This document shows positions 369 to 14,580 of a stretch of DNA of 64,000 nucleotides, one piece after another. Every line of letters starts with the position of its first letter. Positions within the stretch are counted from its first letter, which is position 1. The notes under the pieces are model-generated. The model saw only the letters and a program-made list of their open reading frames with translations. It was not told the DNA's origin and did no database searches. The stretch covers positions 6,521-70,520 of the forward strand of contig JAFGIJ010000125.1 in the NCBI GenBank assembly GCA_016929655.1. Direction: 5' to 3'. The translations under genes were made by a program, and so were the position numbers. This DNA comes from Clostridia bacterium. Lineage in GTDB: Bacteria > Bacillota > Clostridia > DUPQ01.

Positions 369-1637
369 TCAACCTTTCCTAAGACGCGGATCCAGTGCAT
401 CCCTGAGTCCATCACCCAGGAAATTGAATGCCAGCATTGTTATTGCAATTGCCGATGCAGGGAAGAATAATTGATAAGGGGATGAAAGTATCCCTGATAA
501 AGCATTGTTTGCTAGTGTACCCCAGGAAGCCATGGGAGCAGAAACACCCAGACCGATGAAACTCATGAAGGCTTCTGTAAATACTGCACTTGGTATCATC
601 ATGGTCATTGAGATTATAATCGGTCCCATTGCATTTGGAATCAAGTGTCTTGTGATAATATTTTTTCTTGCTACGCCAAGGGCTGTTGCAGCCAGAACAA
701 ACTCCTGCTCCTTTAGAGCCAGTATCTGTCCTCTGACCAGCCTTGCCATTCCCACCCAGTAAACCAATCCAATGGCCAATATTATTGTCCAAAGACCCTG
801 ATTCCCAATAAGCACCATCAACAGAATGATTATCAGAACAAGAGGTACCGAATTAATGATGTCAACTATTCGCATCATCACATTGTCAACACGGCCGCCC
901 TCATATCCTGCAATGGCACCATATGTAACTCCTATAATGAAGTTTACCAAGGAAGCCACAAACGCAACGGTGAGAGAGATCCTTGCACCATACATAACCC
1001 TGGTCAGAACATCGCGGCCGAGATTGTCAGAACCGAATGGATATTTTTTATTCCACACTGTCCTGAATTTTTCATTTGTAACAACACCTTTGTATGTGAA
1101 TACATATTTATAATCGAGCTCTTTATCCACAGCTCCGGAATAATCAAGATATATAAGTTCGTCATTATATGTATAAGCCTTTATCAGAGTTTTCTTGGCT
1201 TCATCATTGCGCTTTTTCTGTTCCGCGGGTGAAAGAACTTTTGTTAAATCGGTTCTTTCTTCACTTGTTATTACCGAATCAGTCAATTCAAATATTTCTA
1301 GTCTTTCAATCAGATTTCCCTTTTTATCAACGAGAATCAGACTGTAGTCAGCAGTCAATGTAACATAAGTTTCAGGAGCCACTTCATAAATGGTCAATAT
1401 GGGCGAAAGGTTCTTAAAATCATTGATCTGGTCTGAATATGACATAGTGGTAAACAAGGGTCCGATTATGGCAAAAAGAATAATCAGAATAATACCAACA
1501 AGCCCAACCATGGACATCTTATTCTTTTTAAGACGCCTCCAGGCATCCTGCCAGTAGGTAAGGCTAGGCCGGAATTCTTCGAATTCCTTTTCCTTCTCTG
1601 TAACAAATTTAAATTTACTTTTATCTATGCTACTCAT
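369..1637 (-). CDS. oppC: oligopeptide ABC transporter permease (OppC/DppC family) with long N-terminal extension
   Basis: C-terminal half has the ABC-permease EAA-type region (LGRDVLTRVMYGARISL...) and 6 predicted TM segments. 1-nt overlap with upstream oppB. Confidence 0.85.
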   Translation of the reverse strand: MSSIDKSKFKFVTEKEKEFEEFRPSLTYWQDAWRRLKKNKMSMVGLVGIILIILFAIIGPLFTTMSYSDQINDFKNLSPILTIYEVAPETYVTLTADYSLILVDKKGNLIERLEIFELTDSVITSEERTDLTKVLSPAEQKKRNDEAKKTLIKAYTYNDELIYLDYSGAVDKELDYKYVFTYKGVVTNEKFRTVWNKKYPFGSDNLGRDVLTRVMYGARISLTVAFVASLVNFIIGVTYGAIAGYEGGRVDNVMMRIVDIINSVPLVLIIILLMVLIGNQGLWTIILAIGLVYWVGMARLVRGQILALKEQEFVLAATALGVARKNIITRHLIPNAMGPIIISMTMMIPSAVFTEAFMSFIGLGVSAPMASWGTLANNALSGILSSPYQLFFPASAIAITMLAFNFLGDGLRDALDPRLRKG

Positions 1638-2566
1638 TATTTTGCCCCTTTTTCAAATCTTATACGTGGATCAACCAATGCATATGCCACATCCACCAGC
1701 AAAATCATTATGATGTAGAATGCTGCGTAAAATACCGTTATGCCCATTATAGTAGTATAATCCCGGTTGGTTATACTCTCAACAAAGTAACCCCCCATAC
1801 CGGGAAGCGCAAATATTCTTTCAATAACAAAGGAACCGGTCAGTATTGCAGCAACCATTGGACCCACATAGGTAATTACCGGTATAAGAGCATTTCTGAC
1901 TGCGTGCTTGCCCATGACAACAATCTCCTTGATACCATTTGCCCTTGCAGTTCTTATATAATCCTGGCGAAGAACTTCAAGCATTGAGGAACGGGTCAGC
2001 CTGGTTACAAATGACAGGGAATACCCACTTAGTGCAACTACAGGTCCTATATACCCCAGGGGATTCTGAAGCCCGTAGGTGGGAAGCCACCCCAGCAATC
2101 CGGCAAAGACATATATGATAAGTGTTGCTATTACAAAGCTTGGAACAGTGACCCCCAGGGTTGCCATGAACATGACAAAATAGTCTATGGGTTTGTTCTG
2201 TTTAAGTGCTGATATAATTCCAAATGGGATTCCCAATATAATTATCAGCACTGTTGCCATCAGTCCGATTTTTGCAGAAGTCGGGAACCCTCCTTTTATA
2301 AGATCAATTACATCCTTCCCGATAATGGAAAAAGACGGACCCAGGTCCAGGGTTACAAGCCCTTTCATATAATCCAGATATTGAATGAAAACAGGGTCAT
2401 CCAGATGATATTTCTCATTGAGCCTTACCATTATTGAATCCGGAACAGGTCTTTCTCTTGTAAAAGGCCCACCGGGAATTGAATGCATCATGAAGAAAGT
2501 TATTGTTGCAATAAGCAATATTGTAAGTATCGCAGCCGCAAACCGCTTCAAAAAATACTTCCCCAT
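1637..2566 (-). CDS. oppB: oligopeptide ABC transporter permease (OppB/DppB family)
   Basis: MGKYFLKRF... N-terminus and multi-TM permease typical of OppB. RBS GGAGGGAATTC before ATG. Confidence 0.85.
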   Translation of the reverse strand: MGKYFLKRFAAAILTILLIATITFFMMHSIPGGPFTRERPVPDSIMVRLNEKYHLDDPVFIQYLDYMKGLVTLDLGPSFSIIGKDVIDLIKGGFPTSAKIGLMATVLIIILGIPFGIISALKQNKPIDYFVMFMATLGVTVPSFVIATLIIYVFAGLLGWLPTYGLQNPLGYIGPVVALSGYSLSFVTRLTRSSMLEVLRQDYIRTARANGIKEIVVMGKHAVRNALIPVITYVGPMVAAILTGSFVIERIFALPGMGGYFVESITNRDYTTIMGITVFYAAFYIIMILLVDVAYALVDPRIRFEKGAK

Positions 2567-2725: not shown

Positions 2726-4207
2726 TCAGTCAACAAGCATTTCAATCCAGTCAAGCACAGCTTCATCAAGCCCTGAATCAAGTTCAATGACCTGATAACC
2801 GTTCTTATGTGCTTCCTTTGGAACAATCCATGCATATAATGTGTCAATTGGCCTGGGATTTTCCGTATAATAGGCTCCGATGAACTCACATCTTTCACCA
2901 TTTATAAAAACTTTTATATCGTTTTCCCCAAGGTCATAAACGTCTTTGAAAGACATAAGCACAAGCCGTGTTTCATTTTTCAACATATTACCGGTATGAA
3001 TTCTGAATCCTGCGAAAATATTCTTCTTAAGTTCAAATGGAAGTATTTCATCAGAAACAACCCCTTCGGGTCTTCTGTCACTGAAAGTAAGCACATGTCT
3101 CCTTCTCTTTCCTTTCATTGATTCCACATCGCCGGTTTCCGTAATGATTTTTTTGTATCCTTCATCGTCATATGCATATCTCTGCATATCCATATAATTG
3201 AAGGTATATATTGCATCCGCTCCCCTGTCTATAAAGGAATGTGCCGCTCCCCTTATGGTTTCTATGCTGTTGAACTGAAATTCATTTTTACATTTTGGGA
3301 AAGCATACTGCCTCAGACATATTTCCAGACACGGAGCTATCAGACATCCTGTTCCTGCTACCTGACGCTTCCATCTTTCGACGGGAATATCCGCCTGACT
3401 GGTATGCCAGAATGGAGATGGCACAAGATTTGCTACATACCCTGCCAGTGCCCAGCCAACACCATCCATTCCCATATCGTAAGCATACTCAGGACTGACA
3501 GGCACCCTGGCTCCTATTTCAATCCTGTGGCCCCTTACTTTTTCATATTCATCGGCCAGTTCCCTTGCTGATTTCATGAATCCATCAAGAACAGTCCGTC
3601 CTTCATCCTCATAGCCGACAGGAAAATGATTGCCAAAACGCATCCAATCCAGTTCTATTCCATCAAAATCATATTTCTCAAAGTACTCCCTAAGTATTCC
3701 AAAATGGTACTCACGGACATCCTCAATCAGGTAATTAAGCTGACGGTCCTCCCATTTTTCATCTCTGTGCATGGCTCTTCTGTAATCCAGGTGCTGCTTA
3801 TAAAACATACTATGCATAGGATCATCCGTATTATCGGCATTGTGAACATCGTTCATCCTCATGCTCATCCATGGAGAAATATTTATTTCCCTAAGCAGTT
3901 TTATCCACTCTGCATAAACATCAATCCCGCGTTCAACCAGAAGCCTGACTGCATTGCTCCAGTTTTTGAAACTCTGCAGTCTTTCCGAAGCAATCATGTC
4001 ATCGGTAACATTATCATAAATAATCTCACCTGCTTTAGTTACATAGCTGGTCTTCTGTGCATTACCGTTCAATAGCATTCTTTCTACATTTGTCCCCCTA
4101 TACTGCATAATAAAGTCCCTGATTTTATCAGGGTCTGCAGCATTCGCTCCACGTTTGAAAAAGTAATGTGAGTTGTCCTCGTTCAACCAAATACCGGCCA
4201 TAATCAA
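2726..4207 (-). CDS. cytoplasmic glycoside-hydrolase-like TIM-barrel protein (GHL/DUF4015-like), function unknown
   Basis: 493 aa with no signal peptide. DGIELDWMRF-type motif resembles the nucleophile region of GHL10-type TIM barrels. First gene downstream of the heptose-related operon, 4-nt overlap with the C-N hydrolase gene. Confidence 0.45.
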   Translation of the reverse strand: MIMAGIWLNEDNSHYFFKRGANAADPDKIRDFIMQYRGTNVERMLLNGNAQKTSYVTKAGEIIYDNVTDDMIASERLQSFKNWSNAVRLLVERGIDVYAEWIKLLREINISPWMSMRMNDVHNADNTDDPMHSMFYKQHLDYRRAMHRDEKWEDRQLNYLIEDVREYHFGILREYFEKYDFDGIELDWMRFGNHFPVGYEDEGRTVLDGFMKSARELADEYEKVRGHRIEIGARVPVSPEYAYDMGMDGVGWALAGYVANLVPSPFWHTSQADIPVERWKRQVAGTGCLIAPCLEICLRQYAFPKCKNEFQFNSIETIRGAAHSFIDRGADAIYTFNYMDMQRYAYDDEGYKKIITETGDVESMKGKRRRHVLTFSDRRPEGVVSDEILPFELKKNIFAGFRIHTGNMLKNETRLVLMSFKDVYDLGENDIKVFINGERCEFIGAYYTENPRPIDTLYAWIVPKEAHKNGYQVIELDSGLDEAVLDWIEMLVD

Positions 4208-4989
4208 TAATCCTTTCTAAGCTCTTTGAGATATGGGAAATCCTTCCTGATTTCGGGAATCGACTCTATGTTCACGTTACAATATAAAATTTCCTCTGTA
4301 TTTTCGCCGGCCCGTGCAATCAGCTCACCTTTTGGGTCAAATACCTTTGAGTCCCCGAAATAAACAACATTGCCTTCCGTGCCCGTTCGGTTGACTCCGG
4401 CCACAAAAACTGTGTTTTCAAGGGCTCTTGCAGGAAGATATATATCCCAGAGATTCCTGTGGGTCGTTGCCCAGGCTGCAGGAACGAAAATAATTTCCGC
4501 ACCCGCCAATGCCAGGTTTCTGCATGTTTCGGGAAAATCCACATCATAGCAGATTATTACTCCGAATTTCCCAAAATATGTTTCATATACCCTGTAGTCA
4601 TGGCTGCCGTATTTAAAATATTTCTGTTCCTTGTCCCAGAGATTGTTTTTATGGTAAACATTCAACAGCCTGCCATTGTTGTCTATGACTGCAGCTGAAT
4701 TATATAAACCATTCTCATCTGTGTATGCCAGAGATGCAATAACATGGATGTTCCCCAGTTTGGCTTCACTTGAAGCCAGTTTAATGGTATCTCCATCTGA
4801 AGAACATGCCATGTCGTAAATTCTGTCACCGATTATATCCAGGTTATAACCAGTTGAAAAAAGTTCCGGAAATACAATGATGTCCGCATGATTTTCAGAA
4901 GCCTGTCTGATCATGCGAACCATCTTCATGTTGTTTTCATAAACATCATTTATAGTGCTGTCAAATTGAGCCAGGGCTATTTTTGCCAT
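4204..4989 (-). CDS. carbon-nitrogen hydrolase (nitrilase superfamily amidohydrolase)
   Basis: MAKIALAQFD...VFPELFSTGY (catalytic Glu), K in the YHKNNLWD region, VIICYD (catalytic Cys). RBS GGGAGA 8 nt before the ATG at 4989. Confidence 0.8.
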   Translation of the reverse strand: MAKIALAQFDSTINDVYENNMKMVRMIRQASENHADIIVFPELFSTGYNLDIIGDRIYDMACSSDGDTIKLASSEAKLGNIHVIASLAYTDENGLYNSAAVIDNNGRLLNVYHKNNLWDKEQKYFKYGSHDYRVYETYFGKFGVIICYDVDFPETCRNLALAGAEIIFVPAAWATTHRNLWDIYLPARALENTVFVAGVNRTGTEGNVVYFGDSKVFDPKGELIARAGENTEEILYCNVNIESIPEIRKDFPYLKELRKDY

Positions 4990-6035
4990 GGTGTTGTCTC
5001 CCTGAACCATCCGTTAAATGTATCAATGACCTCTTCAAGTGAAGCAGTACCGGTCACACCTATTTTCCTTATGGTCACCGCAGCCACCATGTTCCCTATG
5101 AATGCTGCTTCAACTTCATCTGCTCCGGCTGCCAGCGAAGACACAACGGAGGCACTGACCGAATCACCTGCACCGCATATATCATATGGTCTTGGCACAT
5201 CTTCTGTAGGAACCACTACGACTCCTTTTTCCCCAAAGGTCATTATTCCGTTTTTCCCCATGGTAACAAATGTAGGCCTGCCATTTTGTTTATAAAGCCT
5301 GTTCCCGCATTCCTGTACCATTTCATCTTCAGGTTCACTGTTAAGTTCAGGATAAAATGCCCTGCAAGCTTCATAGTTATTACACTTGATAGACATCATC
5401 TTGAACATATGTATCTTCGACCTTGAATCAGCATAAATGATTTTATCTGTATGTTTTGCTGCAAGCCTGATCAGTTTATCCCTTATCCTGTCTGTTATCA
5501 CTCCGCAGTTACTTTCCACCATCTGATCCAGTATTATTACAGCATCCATTTTTTCGAATACATCATCAAGGGTTTCAAGCAATTTACTTTCCAAGACTTC
5601 AGGTGTGTTTTTGAAATTTTTTATATCCAGCCTGTTGCTTTCGACTTCTTCTCCTTTACCATCCCACATCATTGGCTTGACATAAGAAGGGGTAATCATT
5701 TCATCGGTGTCGATTACATAGTCAAATTTCATACCCCTTGCCTTCATTTCGCATCTGAGTTCAAAGCCATTGCCGTCATTTCCGATGAAGGTAACCGGAT
5801 ATACTTCTCCAACACCTAGTTCGCAAAGATTATTGGCTATGGTACCGCCGGCTCCGGGATATTGCCTGGTTTTTACTACCTGATACGCATCGTGGGGTGT
5901 TTCAAGTGATGGTTCATTCAGACGTGTATCAATTCTGAGATACTTGTCCAATACAAAATCACTGACCACTGCTATTCTAAGCTCTCTGAATTTTTTAAAT
6001 AATTCTCTGATTCTTTCTTCTGTCATCTCAATCAC
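4977..6035 (-). CDS. PfkB-family sugar kinase resembling the kinase domain of HldE / HldA (D-glycero-beta-D-manno-heptose-7-phosphate kinase)
   Basis: IAVVSDFVLDKY...PGAGGTIANNLCELG parallels E. coli HldE N-domain VMVVGDVMLDRY...PGGAANVAMNIASLG. C-terminal DICGAGDSVSASVVSSLAAG matches [20 protein letters not shown]. No nucleotidyltransferase domain. Confidence 0.65.
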   Translation of the reverse strand: MIEMTEERIRELFKKFRELRIAVVSDFVLDKYLRIDTRLNEPSLETPHDAYQVVKTRQYPGAGGTIANNLCELGVGEVYPVTFIGNDGNGFELRCEMKARGMKFDYVIDTDEMITPSYVKPMMWDGKGEEVESNRLDIKNFKNTPEVLESKLLETLDDVFEKMDAVIILDQMVESNCGVITDRIRDKLIRLAAKHTDKIIYADSRSKIHMFKMMSIKCNNYEACRAFYPELNSEPEDEMVQECGNRLYKQNGRPTFVTMGKNGIMTFGEKGVVVVPTEDVPRPYDICGAGDSVSASVVSSLAAGADEVEAAFIGNMVAAVTIRKIGVTGTASLEEVIDTFNGWFRETTPWQK

Positions 6036-6990
6036 CGCTCAATAATTTATATGCTAGATTTGCCACTGTATCCTTGTGTTCACCGTTGATATAATAACCT
6101 GTTCCGCCATCGGCAACTGTTCTTGCCAGAATTGTTTTCCATGGTCTGAAATAATATCTTGGATCGGATTTCGGCGGTGCACCGACTGTATTATCCTCAA
6201 TGGGAAGAAGGTCAAAGACCGCTGTTGTAAAATGTGCAATCTTCTCATTGTTTTGATGTGCTACATTCCTTGCCATTGAGAGTGCCTTAAGGTATACTTC
6301 CGGCCCGGTCACTGCAGAACCGAAATTCATGAATACACCGTTTTCCAAATTCTGAATTGATTTTGCATAAATCAGGAAGTCCGTATAAGAGGCCTTTCCG
6401 AGCATTTCTCCATTACAATTGGGATGCTGATGTATGAAATCGAGTCCAATGCCCACATGGACTGTTACGGGAATCTGATTCCTGTAACCTGCTGCAAGAA
6501 GTGAATACTGTTTATGAGGGAATTTTCCCTCCTCAATTGCCATTCCGAGTATTTCACCATGCCCCAAACCCCGTTGTGCTCCTTCGTTGATAAAATCATT
6601 TATCAAACCGGACTGTTTCCACAGACCAAACTGACCCTCACTTATATATTTTGCAACACTCTCTGTAGTGGCACCGATCATGGAAAATTCGAAATCATGT
6701 ATTGCCCCTGCTCCATTGGTGGCAAAATGTGTAATCCATCCTTCTTCCATCAGCCTGATGAGCCATGGCGTAGCACCTGCCCTTATAACATGGGCACCCA
6801 TCATCATCATAACTGTGGCATTGTTTTTCCTGGCTTTCCTTATTGCTTCTACCAAAGCATCAAGTTTTTCATTTCCATAGGCAGCCGGCTTTTTATATGG
6901 GTCCTGCATGACACTTAAATCAAGGTCATGTTCCCTTTCTTCCAGATTTTTCAATAGAAGTTTGCTTCTGTCAAATTTCCCAAAGGGCAT
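6028..6990 (-). CDS. conserved hypothetical protein, 320 aa, unassigned fold (weak resemblance to deoxyhypusine-synthase-like Rossmann proteins)
   Basis: Motifs MMMMGAHVIRAG, ITHFATNGAGAIHDFE and IPVTVHVGIGLDF. Translationally coupled on both sides (overlaps the kinase gene, 1-nt gap to the HAD gene). Confidence 0.3.
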   Translation of the reverse strand: MPFGKFDRSKLLLKNLEEREHDLDLSVMQDPYKKPAAYGNEKLDALVEAIRKARKNNATVMMMMGAHVIRAGATPWLIRLMEEGWITHFATNGAGAIHDFEFSMIGATTESVAKYISEGQFGLWKQSGLINDFINEGAQRGLGHGEILGMAIEEGKFPHKQYSLLAAGYRNQIPVTVHVGIGLDFIHQHPNCNGEMLGKASYTDFLIYAKSIQNLENGVFMNFGSAVTGPEVYLKALSMARNVAHQNNEKIAHFTTAVFDLLPIEDNTVGAPPKSDPRYYFRPWKTILARTVADGGTGYYINGEHKDTVANLAYKLLSGD

Positions 6991-6991
6991 G

Positions 6992-7792
6992 TCAACCTCC
7001 GAACAAATAGTTTTCCAGTGCCTCTAATTCTGTAAAATCTGCAATAATAACATCAGCCCCGGCTTTAATCAACCTCTGTCTCTTCCATTCATCTATGCCC
7101 TCCATGCGTTCTTCATCAGTAGCAACTCCGATGGCAATCCCGCCGACTTCCTTTATATTTTCTATTTCAACATATCCATCACCGAATCCGGCAAGACTTG
7201 AACCATGAAGGTCATTCATTTCAATGATTCTCTGTATAACCATAGCCTTTGAAAATAATTTATATTCATCCCGGGCACCATAGATACGGTCTTTGAAATA
7301 TCTGTCCAGTTTAAGGAGAGCAACTTCTTCCTTCACATACATTTCATCTGTTCCGCTTGCCAGATATATGTCCACACCATGGTCAATCAGACATTCAATG
7401 ATACCTACCGAACCCGGAACAAGAAACTCTGCAGGTTGAATCGTACCATCTGCAAGACCTTTTCTCCTGTATTCTATTTTCTCCAGAAGTCTTCTGTGAT
7501 ATTCGTTCTTATAAATAAGCGGATCCAAAGATTTACCGCCTCTTTTAATGACTTCCTCATTGAGTCTGATGCACTGGTAAATTGTCTGCTTTCCCGTTAA
7601 AAAATCGATGAATTCCCTGGCACATGAGTTTTCGTCTTCAAGTGTTCCTGCACCCGGGGTGCCCATGAGCACCTCTGTAAAATATGGTGTCATTATCTCC
7701 TGCCAGCCTTTTCTGATAAGACTCAGGGTACCATCAAAATCAAAAACCACCGAATGCAGATTGACTGCAGCTGTCTTGCTTATAAATTCCAT
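6992..7792 (-). CDS. HAD-superfamily phosphatase (capped, subfamily I-like)
   Basis: Motif I FDFDGTL, motif II LASGTDE, motif IV GFGDGYVE. RBS GAGGTG 7 nt before the ATG at 7792. Not GmhB-like in sequence. Confidence 0.7.
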   Translation of the reverse strand: MEFISKTAAVNLHSVVFDFDGTLSLIRKGWQEIMTPYFTEVLMGTPGAGTLEDENSCAREFIDFLTGKQTIYQCIRLNEEVIKRGGKSLDPLIYKNEYHRRLLEKIEYRRKGLADGTIQPAEFLVPGSVGIIECLIDHGVDIYLASGTDEMYVKEEVALLKLDRYFKDRIYGARDEYKLFSKAMVIQRIIEMNDLHGSSLAGFGDGYVEIENIKEVGGIAIGVATDEERMEGIDEWKRQRLIKAGADVIIADFTELEALENYLFGG

Positions 7793-7796
7793 TCCT

Positions 7797-8366
7797 CTAC
7801 ACCTCGTTGCCAATCTCTTCACGCAATGTACATATTACACAATGTTCCCAGAGCATATGTATGTCTTCTATTTCCTCCATACCATCAACGGGAGCTATAA
7901 CCGACAGATCACAAAGCTCCTTCAGTTTACCGCCATCCCTGCCTGTCAGTGCTGCAGTTCTGATGCCATGTTCCCTGGCATATTCACAGGCTTTGACCAC
8001 ATTGGGACTGTTTCCGCTTCCACTTATCACAATAAGCAGATCTCCCGGCCTTGCATAATTTTTCAACTGTTCCTGAAAAATTACGGAATAATCATAGTCA
8101 TTTGCCAATGCTGTTATAACAGGCACCTGGTCAACCAGGGAAAATGCCCTGAACCTCTTTGGATTACCGGGTGAAAGTCCTTTGACCAAATCATTTGTGA
8201 AGTGAGAAGCTGTAGCTGCACTTCCACCGTTTCCGGCAAAAAATACAGCCTTGTCCTCTTTTCGCGCTTCCATGAGCATGCCGCATAATCCTTCCACAGC
8301 TTCATATGGTGTTTTTCTTATGGCAGCAGATTGTTTTTCCACATATGCCTTTATAAATTCAAGCAT
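7797..8366 (-). CDS. gmhA: SIS-domain phosphoheptose isomerase (GmhA-like; DiaA-like alternative not excluded)
   Basis: FFAGNGGSAATASHF and LLIVISGSGNSPNVVKACEYAREHGIRTAALTGRDGG align closely with E. coli GmhA motifs ([49 protein letters not shown]). Confidence 0.65.
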   Translation of the reverse strand: MLEFIKAYVEKQSAAIRKTPYEAVEGLCGMLMEARKEDKAVFFAGNGGSAATASHFTNDLVKGLSPGNPKRFRAFSLVDQVPVITALANDYDYSVIFQEQLKNYARPGDLLIVISGSGNSPNVVKACEYAREHGIRTAALTGRDGGKLKELCDLSVIAPVDGMEEIEDIHMLWEHCVICTLREEIGNEV

Positions 8367-8895
8367 CAGCGTTCCATTCCCTTCTTAATAAACCATAGAG
8401 AAGCAGGTTGTGCCTCTTCCCGTCCCTAAGAACCGCTTCCCTATATACACCTTCTTTAACAAAACCAATTTTTTCATATAACTTTATTGCAGCTTTATTG
8501 TAATCTATAACATTGAGCTGCAGCCTATCCAGATTCAGTTCATTGAATGCAAAATTCACAGCCATTGACAATGCTTCATATCCAAAACCTTTTCCACGAT
8601 GGCTTAGATTTCCAAAACCGATTGAAATCCATGCAAAACGATTTGACTGGGATATGCCGTCTATTTCCAATAGACCGATCATCTCACCGGTTTCAATCAA
8701 TCTTATAGCAAAAGGAACAAAGGTATCGGTTCCTCCTGTTTCATATATTTTTTTCAGTTGTTCCCTGGTTTTCGGTACTGCCGGATGGAAATCATAATAA
8801 CGCAGAAAATCCGTATTCTCATACCAACCCGCAAGGATATCCACATCCTTTTCCTGCAATGCCCCCAGACTTAAATTCTGACTCTTCAGTAACAT
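8359..8895 (-). CDS. GNAT family N-acetyltransferase (RimJ/RimL-like)
   Basis: 178 aa with the GNAT acetyl-CoA motif region (HRGKGFGYEALSMAVNFAF). First gene of the operon. Confidence 0.8.
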   Translation of the reverse strand: MLLKSQNLSLGALQEKDVDILAGWYENTDFLRYYDFHPAVPKTREQLKKIYETGGTDTFVPFAIRLIETGEMIGLLEIDGISQSNRFAWISIGFGNLSHRGKGFGYEALSMAVNFAFNELNLDRLQLNVIDYNKAAIKLYEKIGFVKEGVYREAVLRDGKRHNLLLYGLLRREWNADA

Positions 8896-8961: not shown

Positions 8962-9951
8962 TCATGCCAGTCTCCCAAGCTGACCTGGCAGAACCTCAAA
9001 ATCAATGCTGCCATTATCCATGAATCTTCCTATTTCTTCAACAACAAGTGCACCGATCCTTTTCCTTCCATTTGTGACTGCACCTGCGATATGAGGTGTC
9101 AGAATGACATTGGGTATCAGCCTGAGTTCATTGAGTTCCGAAGGAGGTTCCGGATCGGTTACATCAATACAAGCAGAAATTCTTCCTTTTCGCAATTCAG
9201 TGATAAGGTCAGCTTCATTTATCAAAGTTCCGCGGGCAGTGTTTATCAAAATCGCACCATCCTTCATCATGGAAAGATTTTCAGCGTTTATCATATGCCT
9301 GGTAACAGGAAGTGAAGGAGCATGAATTGAAACCACATCACATACTGACATTAAATTCAGTAGACTCGATTTTTCAACTCCCATGGCAAGACAGCCGGCA
9401 TCATCCACTGTAGGATCGTACAAAAGGATTTCAACTTCAAAATTCTTCATTAGCCTGATATAATGCCTGCCCGCATGACCTGCACCGATTACACCTATTT
9501 TTAAATCATAAATATCCCTCACCGTATGGTTCTGACTGTTCCATCCCCCCATAGAAGTGAGTGTGTTGAGGTTGAATATATTTTTCAGCGATGCCAATGT
9601 CATTCCAAGTGCCGTTTCTGCCACCCCTTTTCCAAGTGCAGATGCTGCTGATGTAACTCTGATTCCTCTGGCCCATAGGTCATCAGTAACCAACCCTTTA
9701 ACTGACCCCGCCCCATGAACAACTAGTCCAAGACCGGGAGCTTCTCTTAGGATATCTTCCGTCAATGCCGGGCAATTCCATGATGTTATCGCAATATCTG
9801 CATCTTTTACCAGAAATGCAGCTTCTTCTGCAGTGGGACCCTCTGCTCTTTGATTTACTGAAAGCTCTCCAAATGCCTTCAATTGCCTGAAATGACCTTC
9901 AGTGAATATCTGATCCTGTCTTTCTTTGTTTGCAAGAATTGCTATTTTCAT
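8962..9951 (-). CDS. D-isomer-specific 2-hydroxyacid dehydrogenase (NAD-binding)
   Basis: GVIGAGHAGRHYIRL Rossmann motif and catalytic-region signature NTARGTLINEADL...LTPHIAG. Confidence 0.8.
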   Translation of the reverse strand: MKIAILANKERQDQIFTEGHFRQLKAFGELSVNQRAEGPTAEEAAFLVKDADIAITSWNCPALTEDILREAPGLGLVVHGAGSVKGLVTDDLWARGIRVTSAASALGKGVAETALGMTLASLKNIFNLNTLTSMGGWNSQNHTVRDIYDLKIGVIGAGHAGRHYIRLMKNFEVEILLYDPTVDDAGCLAMGVEKSSLLNLMSVCDVVSIHAPSLPVTRHMINAENLSMMKDGAILINTARGTLINEADLITELRKGRISACIDVTDPEPPSELNELRLIPNVILTPHIAGAVTNGRKRIGALVVEEIGRFMDNGSIDFEVLPGQLGRLA

Positions 9952-9955
9952 TTAA

Positions 9956-10678
9956 TCAACCAATCCCTTCCAGTTTGTCCATTGTTCTGAATTTTCGGTC
10001 AAATACCATTTCAATATATGCTGATGAAATGTTTTTTAGTTTAACGGCTGATTCCTTTGGAATTTCCAGCGAAAATAAAGCCCTGCCTTCTGATTCAGAT
10101 ATTTGTTCAATTGCCTGTCTTACATATACATCTGTCTCAATGCCCTGTATACAGCATGCAAACCCTCCTGAAGCCAATGAGAAATTTGTGCTTCTTGTTT
10201 TTTCCCCGCATACTGCACATTCATATAAAGCCGGAGCAAAACCCGATATAACCGCCGCCCTAAACTCATATATTCCCCTTAGAAGAATCTGGTTTACATT
10301 GCCTCTGGTCATTACATGAAGAGAATTCAGCAAAAACCGGATCATTTCTTCATCAGGGTGCTTTTCCATGATTATAAAAGAAGCGATATCAATAAAGTGG
10401 CAGGCAAGATAATACTTTTCAATGTCTTCAGCGAGCCCCGAATAATCATAAAGCCTTGTAGCTCCAGTAAGCACATAACGACCTTTGCTTTCTACAACCT
10501 CAAAGTACCCACAGAAAAACATACCCGATGCAAATGCAAGCTTTGCACCTTTTTTTCTTACACCTTTTGCCTTGATGGTGGCGGATCCCTCCTCAATTGT
10601 CAGCACAGTCAGCAACCTGTCACTCTCAAGGTAATCATTGGCTCTGACCACTATGCCCGTGAGCTTTTTATCCTTCAT
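9956..10678 (-). CDS. recO: DNA repair protein RecO
   Basis: 240 aa directly downstream of era (conserved era-recO linkage). C-terminal Cys cluster CAVCGEK typical of RecO. Confidence 0.8.
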   Translation of the reverse strand: MKDKKLTGIVVRANDYLESDRLLTVLTIEEGSATIKAKGVRKKGAKLAFASGMFFCGYFEVVESKGRYVLTGATRLYDYSGLAEDIEKYYLACHFIDIASFIIMEKHPDEEMIRFLLNSLHVMTRGNVNQILLRGIYEFRAAVISGFAPALYECAVCGEKTRSTNFSLASGGFACCIQGIETDVYVRQAIEQISESEGRALFSLEIPKESAVKLKNISSAYIEMVFDRKFRTMDKLEGIG

Positions 10679-11568
10679 TCACGATATCCCAGATCCTTTA
10701 ATACTGTATTGCTGTTGCGCCAGTCCTCCTTGACCTTTACCCAGAGCTGGAGAAAGACAGGAACCCCGAACAAAGCCTCAAGATCTGCCCGTGCCATGGA
10801 ACCTATTTTCTTCAGCATAGAACCTTTATTACCAATAATTATGCCTTTGTGTGATTTTCTTTCACAGTAAATCGTCGCATCAATATCTATAATATCCTTG
10901 TCTTCCCTGTCATGGAAAAGAGTTATTTCCACACCGGTTCCATGGGGTATTTCATCTCTGAGCAGCTGCAGTATCTTTTCTCTTATATATTCGGCCGCAA
11001 CCATCCTTTCAGGTTGGTCGGTGTAATCATCACCGTCAAAATACATGACGCCCTCCGGAAGCAATTTCCTGAGAATACCCGGCAATATATCCGTATTGTC
11101 TCCGTTCAAAGCACTTATTGGTACCACTTCGTGGAATTTCAGACTTGAGGAAAATGAGGTTATGGTGCGGAATACCTGTTCCTCACTAGCCTGGTCACAT
11201 TTGTTCACAACCAGAATGACAGGGGGTTTTATATCCCTCAACCGTTCAATGATCATGGAATCCGTTTTACCCGGACCAAGATCCGAAGCTTCGACTACAA
11301 AAATAACACCATCGGAATCATTCAATGAATCTATGGCTCTTTTTACCATGAATTCCCCAAGTTTACTTTTGGGCTTATGGATGCCTGGAGTATCCATAAG
11401 GATAATCTGGCTTTCTGCGTCAGTGATAATTGCCCTTACCGTATTTCTTGTAGTCTGAGGTTTTGCTGAAATTATTGAAACCTTCTTACCTGTCAGGGTA
11501 TTTATAAGAGTTGATTTTCCAACATTCGGCCGTCCTACGACGGCTATGAAACCTGATTTAAAAGCCAT
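10675..11568 (-). CDS. era: GTPase Era
   Basis: GFIAVVGRPNVGKSTLIN (G1), DTPG (G3), NKCD (G4), C-terminal KH domain. Confidence 0.95.
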   Translation of the reverse strand: MAFKSGFIAVVGRPNVGKSTLINTLTGKKVSIISAKPQTTRNTVRAIITDAESQIILMDTPGIHKPKSKLGEFMVKRAIDSLNDSDGVIFVVEASDLGPGKTDSMIIERLRDIKPPVILVVNKCDQASEEQVFRTITSFSSSLKFHEVVPISALNGDNTDILPGILRKLLPEGVMYFDGDDYTDQPERMVAAEYIREKILQLLRDEIPHGTGVEITLFHDREDKDIIDIDATIYCERKSHKGIIIGNKGSMLKKIGSMARADLEALFGVPVFLQLWVKVKEDWRNSNTVLKDLGYRE

Positions 11569-11964
11569 TCAGTCATTACCTCCGACATTGAATTCAAATG
11601 CATGGGGCAGTATTTCATCCATCCCGAACTCCTTGATTTCCCTATTCCTGCCTGATACAGCTATCTTGATATCAGCCACTGCAAATTCCTTGATGACCTG
11701 CCTGCATATGCCGCATGGCCAGGCATAATCATCTATATCACCGGTTATTGCGATTGCGGTAATCTTTTTTTCACCCGCAGAAACAGCTGATGTGATTGCA
11801 GACCTCTCAGCACATATAGTAGCTCCATATGAAGCATTTTCAACATTGGTTCCTGTATAAATCCTACCGCTTTCACATTCTACTGCGGCTCCTATTCTTA
11901 TACCTGAATAAGGCGAATATGAATTTTCAAGTGCTGCTTCAGCGGCTTTCATCAATTTTTCCAT
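11569..11964 (-). CDS. cdd: cytidine deaminase
   Basis: CAERSAI and PCGICRQ zinc-binding motifs, 131 aa. Confidence 0.9.
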   Translation of the reverse strand: MEKLMKAAEAALENSYSPYSGIRIGAAVECESGRIYTGTNVENASYGATICAERSAITSAVSAGEKKITAIAITGDIDDYAWPCGICRQVIKEFAVADIKIAVSGRNREIKEFGMDEILPHAFEFNVGGND

Positions 11965-11972
11965 TTTTGCTC

Positions 11973-12455
11973 CTATCTTATATATCCAAGTGACACCAGG
12001 ATATCTTCCTGCATTTCAATCATTTTATTTTCATCAGCAGCATTCATGTGGTCATAGCCAATGAGATGAAGCATGCCGTGACATACCAAAAATGCAAGTT
12101 CCCTCTCTTCAGAATGACCGTAATCCTCTGCCTGTGACTTCACCCGTTCCATTGATATAATCAGATCTCCCAGCATAATGCATCCTTTTTCCCTGTCTTT
12201 ATCAACTTCAGTATAGTTCAGTTTCCCATTTTTTGAATCAAGCAATGGAAATGACAGAACATCCGTAGCAGAATCAACTCTTCTGTACATAAGGTTCTTT
12301 TCCCTTATTCCGACATCATCAGTTAAATATACCCCTGCAAACAGGGATTCACTGTAAGCACGGGTACATTCATCACAAACCCTTTTTATTATTTCCTCGG
12401 TTTCATGTTCAATCAGAATCCCATCATCCTGATATATCTCCATTAACAGGCTCAT
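11973..12455 (-). CDS. ybeY: rRNA maturation endoribonuclease YbeY
   Basis: HGMLHLIGYDH metal-binding motif. Confidence 0.9.
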   Translation of the reverse strand: MSLLMEIYQDDGILIEHETEEIIKRVCDECTRAYSESLFAGVYLTDDVGIREKNLMYRRVDSATDVLSFPLLDSKNGKLNYTEVDKDREKGCIMLGDLIISMERVKSQAEDYGHSEERELAFLVCHGMLHLIGYDHMNAADENKMIEMQEDILVSLGYIR

Positions 12456-14580
12456 TTTTTATATTCTCCTTTGGTTCAGGATAATCAATTCTTTTATGGA
12501 AATAGCCACCGAATACTCTCAGAAATGCATTCGATATGTCATCGAAATCCTTCAGAGTGAGGTCGCAAAGGTCAAATTGTCCATCGTCAAGCTTGTTTTT
12601 TATCGCTTTTCTTATTATACCCTCTACCTCTCCCCTTGACAGGTCTTTTCCTGCCCTTACTATTGCCTCTACAGAATCTGCAAGCATGACAACCGCAGAT
12701 TCCTTGGATTTCGGCCGCTGGCCTTCATATCTGAATTCATCAGGATCCACATTCGATCCATACTGCTCGACCGCCTTGTTATAGAAATACCTGACCTGGG
12801 TGGTTCCATGATGCTCATTGATAAAATCTCTTATTGCATGGGGCAGCTTATATTTTTTTGCAATTTCATCGCCTTCTTTGGTATGACTTGTAATAACCAG
12901 CTTGCTTAATTCCGGTTTCATCTTGTTGTGGGGATTGTCCTTGCCCTGGTTCTCAGCAAAATATCCCGGTCGGCTCATTTTACCGACATCATGGTAATAT
13001 GCCCCAACTCGTGCAAGAAGGCCGTTTGCACCTATTTCGTTTGCTGCTTCCTCTGCCAGATTGCCCACCATAAGGCTATGGTGATAGGTTCCCGGTGCCT
13101 CCAGCAAAAGTTTCTTGAGCAGAGGTTGATTGGGATTTGAAAGTTCGAGAAGCTTGAATGGTGTAATTATGTTGAAAACTGATTCAAACAAAGGCATAAG
13201 ACCGATTACCAGAATAACTGAAATAACTCCTCCGGCAGTCAACGCCAGATAATCCATTACAATTTCAGTAGGATTGCTGTTGTGTGCCATTGTCAGTAAA
13301 AATAGTATAAGGGAGGACGCCAGACCCAATATCAACCCTGATGACAAAAGACGCATCCTGGAACTTAGCTTTCTTGCAAAGTATGCTGACATTGTTCCCG
13401 CACTTATAAGTATAGCAAGATATATTGTATCTGTTTTATAAATGAAGCTGATGAATACTGCGGTAACTGCTCCTACGATTATTGCAATTTTTTCATCTAC
13501 CAATATTGAAACCAGCATCGGCAGTACAAAAACCGGCAGATACAGGTAATATGTTCCCGGGACAAGATAAACAATGGCAAACAACATTACCTCGATTACA
13601 CATATTATAAGGATGTGTCTTTTTGTATAACTCTTTTTCCCCGAAAACAGCATCTTGAACATTATTACCGGAACCAAAAGAATAAGCAGCAGTCCGGAAA
13701 GCCCGATAAAAACTATTATATTAAAGGAAGCTCCCCCCATCAGGTTCATTTCAGTGAGTAATCTGATTGTCTGGGCATCAGCCTTTTCACCCTGGCGGAT
13801 GATCAAATCGCCTTCTTCAATTACAATAGGATTATTTTCGATGACATCTGCCCTTGCAGCTTCCCTCGCCGCTTCTGTTTCTTCTATATTTACTATACTG
13901 TTTATCCTAAGAAACGCAGCTGCAATATTATATGAGAATGTCCTGAGTCCGCTGTTGATGATGGCATATTCTGTTTCATCCTTGAATTCTTCAAGCAAAT
14001 CCTCCCTGTTGGCATCAAATACATTCCTGTTTTGTATGGATGAAAATGCCTCTGTTACTATTGACTTAAAATTATTGTACTCAGCTTCACTTATTCCATC
14101 CAGCAACGCCCGAACCTGCTCATATTTGATTGTTATTCCATATGTCATGCAGATGCTGATATATGAACTGATTCTGTTGTCAAGATACTTGGCAAAATCT
14201 CCGCCCTGAATCTTGTATTGCATTATCTCGCTTCTGTATGTATCTGTCCTGTCAAAGAAAATTGAAATGTCTTCAAATGAAGAAAAGGTTGCATCATGCC
14301 TGCTCACCAGGACCGGCTCAGTTTCAGCAGCAGCTTTTTCGGCAAGGGCCGTTGTTCCTGTTACATCGTAAAACTTGAAGGGTGCATAAACATCCTTGTT
14401 GGCATAACCCCCTTCGTCAAGTGTCTTCATAAAAGGAATTACCTTGAAATAGGCAGTGAATGCAAGTATTGCCAGGGTAATAAAAATAATAAGGGCAGCC
14501 AGTATATTATTTTTATTGAAAAATGAACCGATTTTCTTCATGTCAACCCTTCTTCCCGCTTCTGTTTTCATATTTGTCAT
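12424..14580 (-). CDS. pgpH: 7TM-receptor-HD (PgpH-type) membrane phosphohydrolase
   Basis: Multi-TM central region plus C-terminal HD domain (YYHDVGK). Conserved position between phoH and ybeY. The real start may be the internal MKKIGSF near 14541. Confidence 0.85.
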   Translation of the reverse strand: MTNMKTEAGRRVDMKKIGSFFNKNNILAALIIFITLAILAFTAYFKVIPFMKTLDEGGYANKDVYAPFKFYDVTGTTALAEKAAAETEPVLVSRHDATFSSFEDISIFFDRTDTYRSEIMQYKIQGGDFAKYLDNRISSYISICMTYGITIKYEQVRALLDGISEAEYNNFKSIVTEAFSSIQNRNVFDANREDLLEEFKDETEYAIINSGLRTFSYNIAAAFLRINSIVNIEETEAAREAARADVIENNPIVIEEGDLIIRQGEKADAQTIRLLTEMNLMGGASFNIIVFIGLSGLLLILLVPVIMFKMLFSGKKSYTKRHILIICVIEVMLFAIVYLVPGTYYLYLPVFVLPMLVSILVDEKIAIIVGAVTAVFISFIYKTDTIYLAILISAGTMSAYFARKLSSRMRLLSSGLILGLASSLILFLLTMAHNSNPTEIVMDYLALTAGGVISVILVIGLMPLFESVFNIITPFKLLELSNPNQPLLKKLLLEAPGTYHHSLMVGNLAEEAANEIGANGLLARVGAYYHDVGKMSRPGYFAENQGKDNPHNKMKPELSKLVITSHTKEGDEIAKKYKLPHAIRDFINEHHGTTQVRYFYNKAVEQYGSNVDPDEFRYEGQRPKSKESAVVMLADSVEAIVRAGKDLSRGEVEGIIRKAIKNKLDDGQFDLCDLTLKDFDDISNAFLRVFGGYFHKRIDYPEPKENIKNEPVNGDISG

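Follow-up and report, generated by a model that had tools for sequence, protein, structure and literature searches.

A GSU2086-family protein with a predicted deoxyhypusine synthase-type fold belongs to a conserved sugar-phosphate cassette of NDP-heptose enzyme paralogs

A 64,000-nucleotide stretch of a Clostridia bacterium assembly (GCA_016929655.1, contig JAFGIJ010000125.1, positions 6,521 to 70,520; the whole stretch is termed the window herein) carries on its minus strand, at 6028..6990, a gene encoding a protein of 320 amino acids (aa), which is the target of this study. We identified the target as a full-length member of the GSU2086 family, a widespread and catalogued protein family without assigned function. 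Because gene order around this family is conserved in dozens of unrelated contigs, and because natural fusions join it to each of its partners, the target is an enzyme dedicated to a pathway built from paralogs of nucleoside diphosphate (NDP)-heptose enzymes. It is very probably a dinucleotide-fold enzyme serving a sugar-activation cassette; a redox-neutral epimerization or isomerization of a sugar phosphate, carried out via a bound dinucleotide, is the leading but tentative assignment of its specific reaction, which may well prove wrong.

NCBIfam model NF052581 ("GSU2086 family protein") matched the target with 388 bits (cutoff 250; E = 3.6e-116), aligning target residues 5-313 with model positions 1-299 of 301, so that the view taken in a preliminary description of the window, that the protein could not be placed in a known family, was mistaken. 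An exhaustive HMMER scan of representatives at 50% identity recovered 2115 clusters at E ≤ 1e-3, of which 403 reached E ≤ 1e-30. At 90% identity, more than 8000 family clusters were retrieved, all of which are "hypothetical" or have been named automatically, e.g., "ornithine cyclodeaminase family domain". The ArgZ-like C-terminal Rossmann domain, Pfam PF21570, was matched just above its cutoff and over a short stretch only (29.7 bits, cutoff 27; residues 47-109, model positions 4-66 of 213). Below their cutoffs were the deoxyhypusine synthase models PF01916 (19.1 versus 27, over positions 8-78 of 288 only) and TIGR00321 (18.7 versus 304 bits), the ornithine cyclodeaminase model TIGR00300 (17.7 bits versus 410), and the bifunctional ArgZ model of NCBIfam (20.6 versus 1025). 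By those family models, the target is neither a deoxyhypusine synthase nor a cyclodeaminase. NCBIfam also showed weak N-terminal similarity to NF052526, which, together with TIGR00300, is labeled as nickel-pincer-dependent ornithine cyclodeaminases. The target matched neither PF01467 nor TIGR02199 (nucleotidyltransferase) in the Pfam and NCBIfam scans, had no Epimerase (PF01370) or adh_short match in Pfam, and had no short-chain dehydrogenase/reductase (SDR) among the 50 best matches of the fold search; no characterized housekeeping family was matched.

A literature search found no biochemical study of the GSU2086 family and no paper connecting deoxyhypusine synthase with heptose. The sole experimental data it recovered on GSU2086, the namesake of NF052581, came from a transposon-sequencing study of Geobacter sulfurreducens (PMC5585712). 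There, GSU2086 sits between hldE and gmhA, and its transposon mutants had an electrode fitness defect of -3.2, compared with -3.1 and -3.7 for the flanking hldE and gmhA genes (PMC5585712). The target belongs to the same family over its full length, and both genes lie amid pathway genes; the association seen for the namesake recurs in the window, where SIS_2 and PfkB genes stand in the target operon. The two settings differ in that the Geobacter kinase is the bifunctional HldE, in a lipopolysaccharide context, whereas the window has a monofunctional kinase, no nucleotidyltransferase, a 276-aa HAD protein, and amidase and GH156 genes that follow.

We examined 94 related loci from genomes and metagenomes (80 metagenome loci came from the alignment profile), in which partner domains were located by six-frame hidden Markov model (HMM) search. 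Plasmid sequences, also searched, supplied two informative loci. A HAD gene lay directly upstream of the target gene, on the same strand, at 44 of the 55 eligible loci, and a PfkB gene lay directly downstream at 42 of 56. Long flanks, of 3 kb or more upstream and 4 kb or more downstream, were available for 25 loci, of which 19 had HAD, 20 PfkB, 14 SIS, and seven a ROK kinase; at least one of HAD, PfkB, and SIS was present in 21, and four were stand-alone. At these 25 loci, all of the window's type, no nucleotidyltransferase lay within 5 kb, and none was found anywhere in the 64-kb window with an HMM built from fused HldE-domain-II-like domains.

The partners are also joined to the target in single polypeptides. 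Among the 150 best representative clusters, 21 were longer than 450 aa, and 20 of those were scanned for fusions. We found HAD-target fusions (P0124, P0132, and P0163), SIS-target and target-SIS fusions (P0125, P0143, and P0258), and target-PfkB and PfkB-HAD-target fusions (PfkB fusions P0141 and P0210), as well as nucleotidyltransferase-target, target-nucleotidyltransferase, and DUF89 phosphatase-nucleotidyltransferase-target arrangements. The fused nucleotidyltransferases were nearest HldE domain II (97-169 bits, cutoff 181.5), and the fused or adjacent kinases were nearest HldE domain I. The preliminary description had placed the target in the same pathway as the genes around it, and the gene order and the fusions to each of HAD, PfkB, and SIS bear this out. 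In one operon (L100/L101, 10001-13104), two HldE-domain-II-like nucleotidyltransferase domains were observed, one at the C-terminus of the target homolog (P0126, 516 aa) and the other at the N-terminus of the PfkB kinase (517 aa).

The cassette takes the form of a conserved triad in several groups, among them Desulfovibrionales, Sedimentisphaerales, and Kiritimatiellae; in this triad, a bifunctional nucleotidyltransferase-PfkB protein, the target homolog, and SIS are encoded in succession. These triads are placed in flagellin or surface-glycan islands with radical SAM, thiamine pyrophosphate-dependent, methyltransferase, NeuB, and glycosyltransferase genes, and in a neighbor-joining tree their sequences formed one clade nested among the others. 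At two Desulfovibrionales loci (L095, 7561-11543, and L097, 7519-12640), the gene immediately before the triad encodes a NeuB-family synthase of 285-289 aa that has no SAF domain, and the triad is followed by a radical SAM/SPASM gene, with genes for PseF, acylneuraminate cytidylyltransferase, a split transketolase, and sialate O-acetylesterase in the surroundings. The cassette also adjoins a GFO_IDH_MocA oxidoreductase gene and genes for the binding protein, ATPase, and permease of a ribose-type sugar ABC importer in a Clostridia-like locus (L001, 1137-7900), in Treponema (L013, 563-6426), and on a Chloroflexota plasmid (L096, 1142-7085); an AP_endonuc_2 gene was additionally present at L001 and L013.

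An AlphaFold2 model of the target, computed with 68 homologs, had a predicted local distance difference test score (pLDDT) of 89.4 and a predicted template modeling score (pTM) of 0.89. Of the 85 PDB matches that Foldseek gave at E ≤ 1e-3, the best 50 consisted only of the AgrE/ArgZ C-terminal domain, the LOR/SDH protein 3c2q, and deoxyhypusine synthases. E-values were 2.7e-8 for 6lrh, 9.6e-8 for 3c2q, and 1e-6 to 1e-4 for the deoxyhypusine synthases, with alignments of about 280-350 columns, template modeling (TM) scores of ~0.5, and 10-18% identity. The model thereby predicts a double Rossmann fold of the deoxyhypusine synthase type, superposable on deoxyhypusine synthase and on AgrE, and the weak likeness to deoxyhypusine synthase remarked on earlier from the sequence proved correct at the level of the fold.

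The best structural and sequence relatives of the target are the ornithine cyclodeaminase domain of AgrE/ArgZ (6lrf/6lrg/6lrh, 6juy; PF21570) and the LOR/SDH cyclodeaminases (3c2q, TIGR00300), at 13-18% identity and a TM score of ~0.5, with sequence similarity limited to ~60-100 N-terminal residues. A profile of 43 diverse family members matched AgrE with E = 3.5e-8 over residues 12-110, i.e., the first Rossmann half. The family profile and AgrE have in common the motifs G-x-(H/V)-V-I and A-x-HD(I/F)E, and HD(I/F)E also occurs in 3c2q. The context of the target is sugar-phosphate metabolism, as opposed to arginine/ornithine for the AgrE/ArgZ-type relatives, and neither arginine/ornithine families nor the larB, larC, and larE families were seen in the annotated neighborhoods of relatives or in the window operon. 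Deoxyhypusine synthase (PF01916; 1dhs, 7cmc, and 8put) has its overall fold in common with the target over ~310-340 aligned columns; unlike that enzyme, the target failed both family models and has no eIF5A or polyamine context.

Residues conserved across the family are G93, H98, D99, E101, G106, T108, E110, G122, H178, G182, D184, D204, F205, G218, G224, P230, E231, K235, N242, D260, R282, and R290. Near-invariant among them or beside them are glycine loops following beta-strands (G65, G93, and G224), acidic residues at strand ends (D99/E101, D184, and D260), and the basic residues H98, H178, K235, R282, and R290. The two motifs singled out in the preliminary description, TNGAGAIHDFE and IPVTVHVGIGLDF, are present and hold the most conserved positions of the family (G93, H98, D99, E101, H178, G182, and D184). 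Judged from the alignment, this pattern is consistent with what would be expected of a dinucleotide site together with a phospho-sugar site, and the dinucleotide-binding pocket of the fold appears to be kept in the target.

Other details of the fold were also considered. K285, in an RPWK motif resembling the SWGK of deoxyhypusine synthase, was rejected as a Schiff-base lysine, as E or V replaces it in distant family members. An hhalign comparison with the human deoxyhypusine synthase sequence gave a local match of 0.7% probability that set R290/T291 opposite the catalytic Lys329, with K285 close by, which is a weak hint only. At the level of motifs, the strand-end loops T-N-G-A-G of the target and T-T-A-G-G of the human enzyme correspond, as do the I-P-V residues after the central helix. 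In two family members, P0122 (679 aa) and P0135 (693 aa), the GSU2086 domain occurs twice in tandem within a single polypeptide. By analogy with deoxyhypusine synthase, such duplications would fit an obligate dimer with active sites at the interface.

In the window, the target open reading frame (ORF) starts on the minus strand with the ATG at 6990 and stops with the TGA at 6030-6028; this start is correct, as homolog alignments begin at residue 1. The TGA of the HAD gene (6994-6992) is separated by one base from the target ATG, and a GGAGG lies 8 nucleotides (nt) 5' of that ATG, within the HAD coding sequence. After the target TGA, one base precedes the ATG of the PfkB kinase at 6026; the ORF listing gives an overlapping GTG at 6035 as an alternative kinase start, and relatives of 349 aa favor the ATG. 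The one-base gap on either side upholds the earlier statement that the target is translationally coupled between the HAD and kinase genes. From the GNAT gene (8895) through SIS, HAD, target, PfkB, and carbon-nitrogen hydrolase (CN-hydrolase) to the last gene, of 493 aa and ending at 2726, neighboring genes are separated solely by overlaps or gaps of 1-4 nt, and the base composition of the operon is even (G+C fraction 0.41-0.43). A protein from a Clostridia metagenome-assembled genome, P0001, is identical to the target. The annotated features of the region, in the order of their coordinates, are as follows.

369..2566, minus strand: OppB/OppC-type ABC permeases, 159 nt downstream of the GH156 gene (from ORFs and the annotated relative L002)
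2726..4207, minus strand: homolog of the GH156 family (inverting exosialidase), 493 aa, last gene of the tight block (PDB 6rzd, E = 2e-117, residues 4-492 against 7-500)
4204..5010, minus strand: carbon-nitrogen hydrolase (nitrilase-superfamily amidase), overlapping the end of the kinase gene (PF00795, E = 6.9e-54; PDB relatives are nitrilase-like amidases)
4977..6035 (probable start ATG 6026), minus strand: PfkB-family sugar kinase, nearest to HldE domain I/HldA heptose-7-phosphate kinases (TIGR02198, 128.8 bits, cutoff 345)
6028..6990, minus strand: target gene, GSU2086-family protein with a predicted fold like deoxyhypusine synthase and the ArgZ C-terminal domain (ORF, NF052581, AlphaFold2, Foldseek)
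6992..7822, minus strand: HAD-superfamily hydrolase with a DFDGTL motif, presumed sugar-phosphate phosphatase, 276 aa (PF00702, E = 1.1e-6)
7797..8366, minus strand: single-domain SIS_2 sugar-phosphate isomerase, GmhA-like (PF13580, E = 4.6e-21; gmhA models 118-121 bits, cutoffs 209-276)
8359..8895, minus strand: GNAT N-acetyltransferase, overlapping the SIS start by 8 nt (PF13302; best NCBIfam match PseH, 53.7 bits, below cutoff)
8962..9951, minus strand: D-2-hydroxyacid dehydrogenase, 66 nt upstream of the GNAT gene (PF02826, E = 4.7e-49)
9956-14580, minus strand: housekeeping block of 7TMR-HD, YbeY, cytidine deaminase, Era, and RecO genes, upstream of the operon (Pfam annotation of relatives)

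The earlier labels of the three partner genes held: the HAD protein matches PF00702, the best NCBIfam match of the kinase is rfaE_dom_I and its best PDB match is Burkholderia HldA (4e84, E = 3.2e-7), and the best matches of the SIS protein are phosphoheptose isomerase models, with all three below the curated equivalog cutoffs. The description of the locus as a heptose-like operon may be too specific here, given the sub-cutoff scores, the coupled CN-hydrolase and GH156 genes, and the lack of a nucleotidyltransferase in the 64 kb. Compared by eye with Escherichia coli GmhA, the SIS protein has retained both histidines and the phosphate loops GNGGS and SGSGNS. On this comparison, Asp stands in place of the catalytic Glu65 of GmhA and Glu in place of Gln172; the protein may be an isomerase variant that takes another substrate. 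The true start of the HAD gene is probably an ATG near 7792, because its relatives are 267 aa long.

The GNAT and CN-hydrolase genes are lineage-specific: the former was found at only seven related loci, all in the clade of the window, and the latter at eight. The GH156 family was defined experimentally (PMC6254351). For its homolog here, Pfam yielded only a weak GHL10 match, and no obvious signal peptide was seen on reading the sequence. Its coupling to the CN-hydrolase and the kinase cassette hints at an intracellular locus for salvage of a sialic-acid-like (ulosonic) acid. The triads beside NeuB in Desulfovibrionales are a second, independent link of the cassette to nonulosonic-acid genes.

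The partners suggest a route in which the GmhA-like SIS isomerase would convert a ketose-phosphate to an aldose-phosphate, the HldA-like PfkB kinase would phosphorylate the anomeric position, a HAD or DUF89 phosphatase would remove the distal phosphate, and, in one clade, an HldE-domain-II-like nucleotidyltransferase would activate the product. The target would supply a fifth step in addition to isomerase, kinase, phosphatase, and nucleotidyltransferase, because each of those four activities has a separate domain, which is frequently part of one polypeptide with the target. Enzymes of this fold group use a tightly held NAD (NPAD in some archaeal cyclodeaminases, according to work cited in PMC13524815) to oxidize and afterwards re-reduce. 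We infer the cofactor, the substrate, and the reaction as follows: a tightly bound NAD(P)+ would oxidize and then re-reduce a sugar-phosphate intermediate, leading to epimerization or a related isomerization. This step would probably precede nucleotidyl transfer, because most cassettes and the 64-kb window are without a nucleotidyltransferase, and the outcome would be a non-canonical activated sugar. Among the options raised earlier for a new step in this operon, an oxidoreductase fits the fold best, probably a redox-neutral one with a bound cofactor, and a nucleotidyltransferase is disfavored, as a separate nucleotidyltransferase is repeatedly fused or adjacent to the target and its fold is unrelated.

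A functional precedent is HldD, the ADP-L-glycero-D-manno-heptose 6-epimerase, an SDR that is the fifth enzyme of heptose activation and performs a redox-neutral epimerization with a tightly bound nicotinamide cofactor. The parallel is one of function only, since the fold of HldD is unrelated to that of the target; moreover, HldD acts on an ADP-sugar, whereas most target cassettes are without a nucleotidyltransferase. In its most extended form, which we regard as possible but on the whole doubtful, our proposal is that the GSU2086 family is an unrecognized fifth enzyme of a very widespread, non-lipopolysaccharide GmhA/HldA branch, in which a deoxyhypusine synthase fold with a bound cofactor of the nicotinamide adenine dinucleotide (NAD) type would act on a heptose-type sugar phosphate ahead of its nucleotide activation, epimerizing or even aminating it. 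This would yield a new activated sugar for flagellin and surface glycans and for sugar-salvage loci of Clostridia, spirochaetes, and Chloroflexota.

Several points weigh against the epimerase proposal. To our knowledge, every characterized member of the fold group oxidizes a carbon-nitrogen (C-N) bond, in spermidine or ornithine, and not a sugar hydroxyl, so that epimerizing a sugar would be a kind of chemistry new to this fold. In E. coli, the canonical pathway yields ADP-D,D-heptose without such a protein. Nine loci carry the target gene without any usual partner on the available sequence, four of them with long flanks on both sides, and the transposon phenotype in Geobacter could be a polar effect. 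The sub-cutoff scores of the SIS, PfkB, and HAD partners mean that the sugar may not be a heptose. The window cassette, coupled to an amidase, a GNAT protein, and a GH156 homolog beside an Opp-type importer, looks more catabolic than biosynthetic, as do the Treponema, Clostridia, and Chloroflexota cassettes that adjoin sugar importers with GFO_IDH_MocA and AP_endonuc_2. Because these contexts resemble salvage or catabolism and the partners score below the heptose cutoffs, the sugar handled in the window may not be D-glycero-D-manno-heptose.

C-N chemistry, whether deglycation or amination, is a serious if unlikely alternative, because all characterized relatives act on amines. The target would use bound NAD to oxidize a secondary or primary amine of a sugar derivative to an imine, whose nitrogen would then be exchanged, released, or installed ("hydrogen-borrowing" amination). 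The cassette, by an extension that we find similarly hard to favor, would handle an amino or glycated sugar, either in Amadori, opine, or sialic-acid-like catabolism or in the synthesis of an amino-heptose that the neighboring GNAT protein acetylates. Amines are the substrates of all solved relatives, the HD(I/F)E motif is common to AgrE/ArgZ and 3c2q, and the CN-hydrolase, the GNAT protein with PseH as its best match, the GH156 homolog, and the Opp-type importer of the window would suit such a substrate, as would the NeuB, PseF, and sialate O-acetylesterase genes beside the Desulfovibrionales triads. The cassettes next to ABC sugar importers, GFO_IDH_MocA, and AP_endonuc_2 point the same way; a kinase, a SIS protein, and AP_endonuc_2 together resemble the FrlD/FrlB/FrlC logic of fructosamine catabolism. 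However, the SIS protein scored 118 bits against GmhA and 12.5 against FrlB, the PfkB kinase scored 129 bits against HldE domain I and 25 against FrlD, and the fused nucleotidyltransferases are HldE-domain-II-like. GNAT, CN-hydrolase, and GH156 are also confined to the window's own clade (7-9 of the 94 loci), and no aminotransferase or amine donor gene is conserved beside the triad.

We consider it improbable that the target instead binds the ADP-/NDP-sugar or the sugar 1-phosphate of the pathway in its NAD site and supplies the "missing transfer step", whether as a transferase, as a hydrolase, or as an enzyme resembling a phosphorylase, perhaps through a GH4-like oxidation-elimination-addition. 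NAD is itself an ADP-sugar, so that a pocket of the deoxyhypusine synthase type could conceivably accommodate ADP-heptose. Cassettes without a nucleotidyltransferase would stop at a sugar 1-phosphate in need of a consumer, and the operon with two nucleotidyltransferase domains has one of them fused to the target domain. Such a role is pure conjecture, however; it has no precedent in the deoxyhypusine synthase/ornithine cyclodeaminase group, no acceptor-specific partner is conserved, and the glycan islands already encode conventional glycosyltransferases.

A nickel-dependent sugar-phosphate epimerase, with a nickel-pincer cofactor (NPN or NPAD) like that of the TIGR00300 ornithine cyclodeaminases, seems quite improbable, because no larB, larC, or larE family occurs in any annotated neighborhood. 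It would draw on the weak N-terminal similarity to TIGR00300 and NF052526 and on the hydride-shuttle racemizations and epimerizations that nickel-pincer enzymes perform. The TIGR00300 score is, however, far below its cutoff, and the HDxE motif is also found in AgrE, which was crystallized with NAD+ (6lrg). A 2025 report of NPAD-dependent ornithine cyclodeaminases, cited in PMC13524815, speaks for the nickel cofactor. Finally, replacement of HldC or GmhB by the target, as the missing nucleotidyltransferase or heptose-bisphosphate phosphatase, might account for the lack of a nucleotidyltransferase in the window operon and of a nearby HAD in some triads, but both roles were rejected as very improbable, since dedicated nucleotidyltransferase and phosphatase (HAD and DUF89) domains stand in the same polypeptides or next to the target domain, where a second such activity would be redundant. 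Moreover, neither nucleotidyltransferases nor HAD phosphatases are related to the target in fold, and the HldE-domain-II-like HMM did not match it.

The GmhA-HldE-GmhB route is regarded as complete. It supplies ADP-heptose and other NDP-heptoses, from which the bacterial envelope is built and which act as agonists of the innate immune sensor ALPK1. Synteny of the target family with every enzyme of this route, and its fusions to them, imply an unrecognized reaction and probably an unrecognized activated sugar. Family members are found in Geobacter, in many gut bacteria that are Gram-positive or spirochaetes, and in sulfate reducers, where they lie in flagellin-glycan islands. If the epimerase proposal is right, the deoxyhypusine synthase/ornithine cyclodeaminase fold would extend from amine to sugar-phosphate substrates. 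As the partner enzymes and likely substrates are known, the role is directly testable. The family was already catalogued as NF052581; what would be new is the tie of a fold of this type to a sugar-phosphate pathway.

Genes without the usual partners on the available sequence occur in two clades of close homologs, at 56-63% identity to the window protein, one with L022, L024, L026, and L027 and the other with L032, L042, L045, L047, L049, and L065. Several of their contigs are short, and a further member of the second clade, L050, has an upstream HAD gene. By Pfam, the neighbors of the stand-alone genes at L024, L026, L027, and L049 (a response regulator, an MFS transporter, and a prephenate dehydratase among them) had no common theme.

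Outside the tight block of the window, membership of the D-2-hydroxyacid dehydrogenase gene in the operon is uncertain, and conservation upstream is seen only in the lineage of the window. In close relatives, genes for OppD, OppF, and an SBP_bac_5 binding protein come after the OppB/OppC genes, and on the other side a PhoH gene precedes the housekeeping block. Synteny with relatives at 81-90% identity spans the whole region, and the sugar operon is therefore a stable chromosomal part of this lineage and not a recent insertion.

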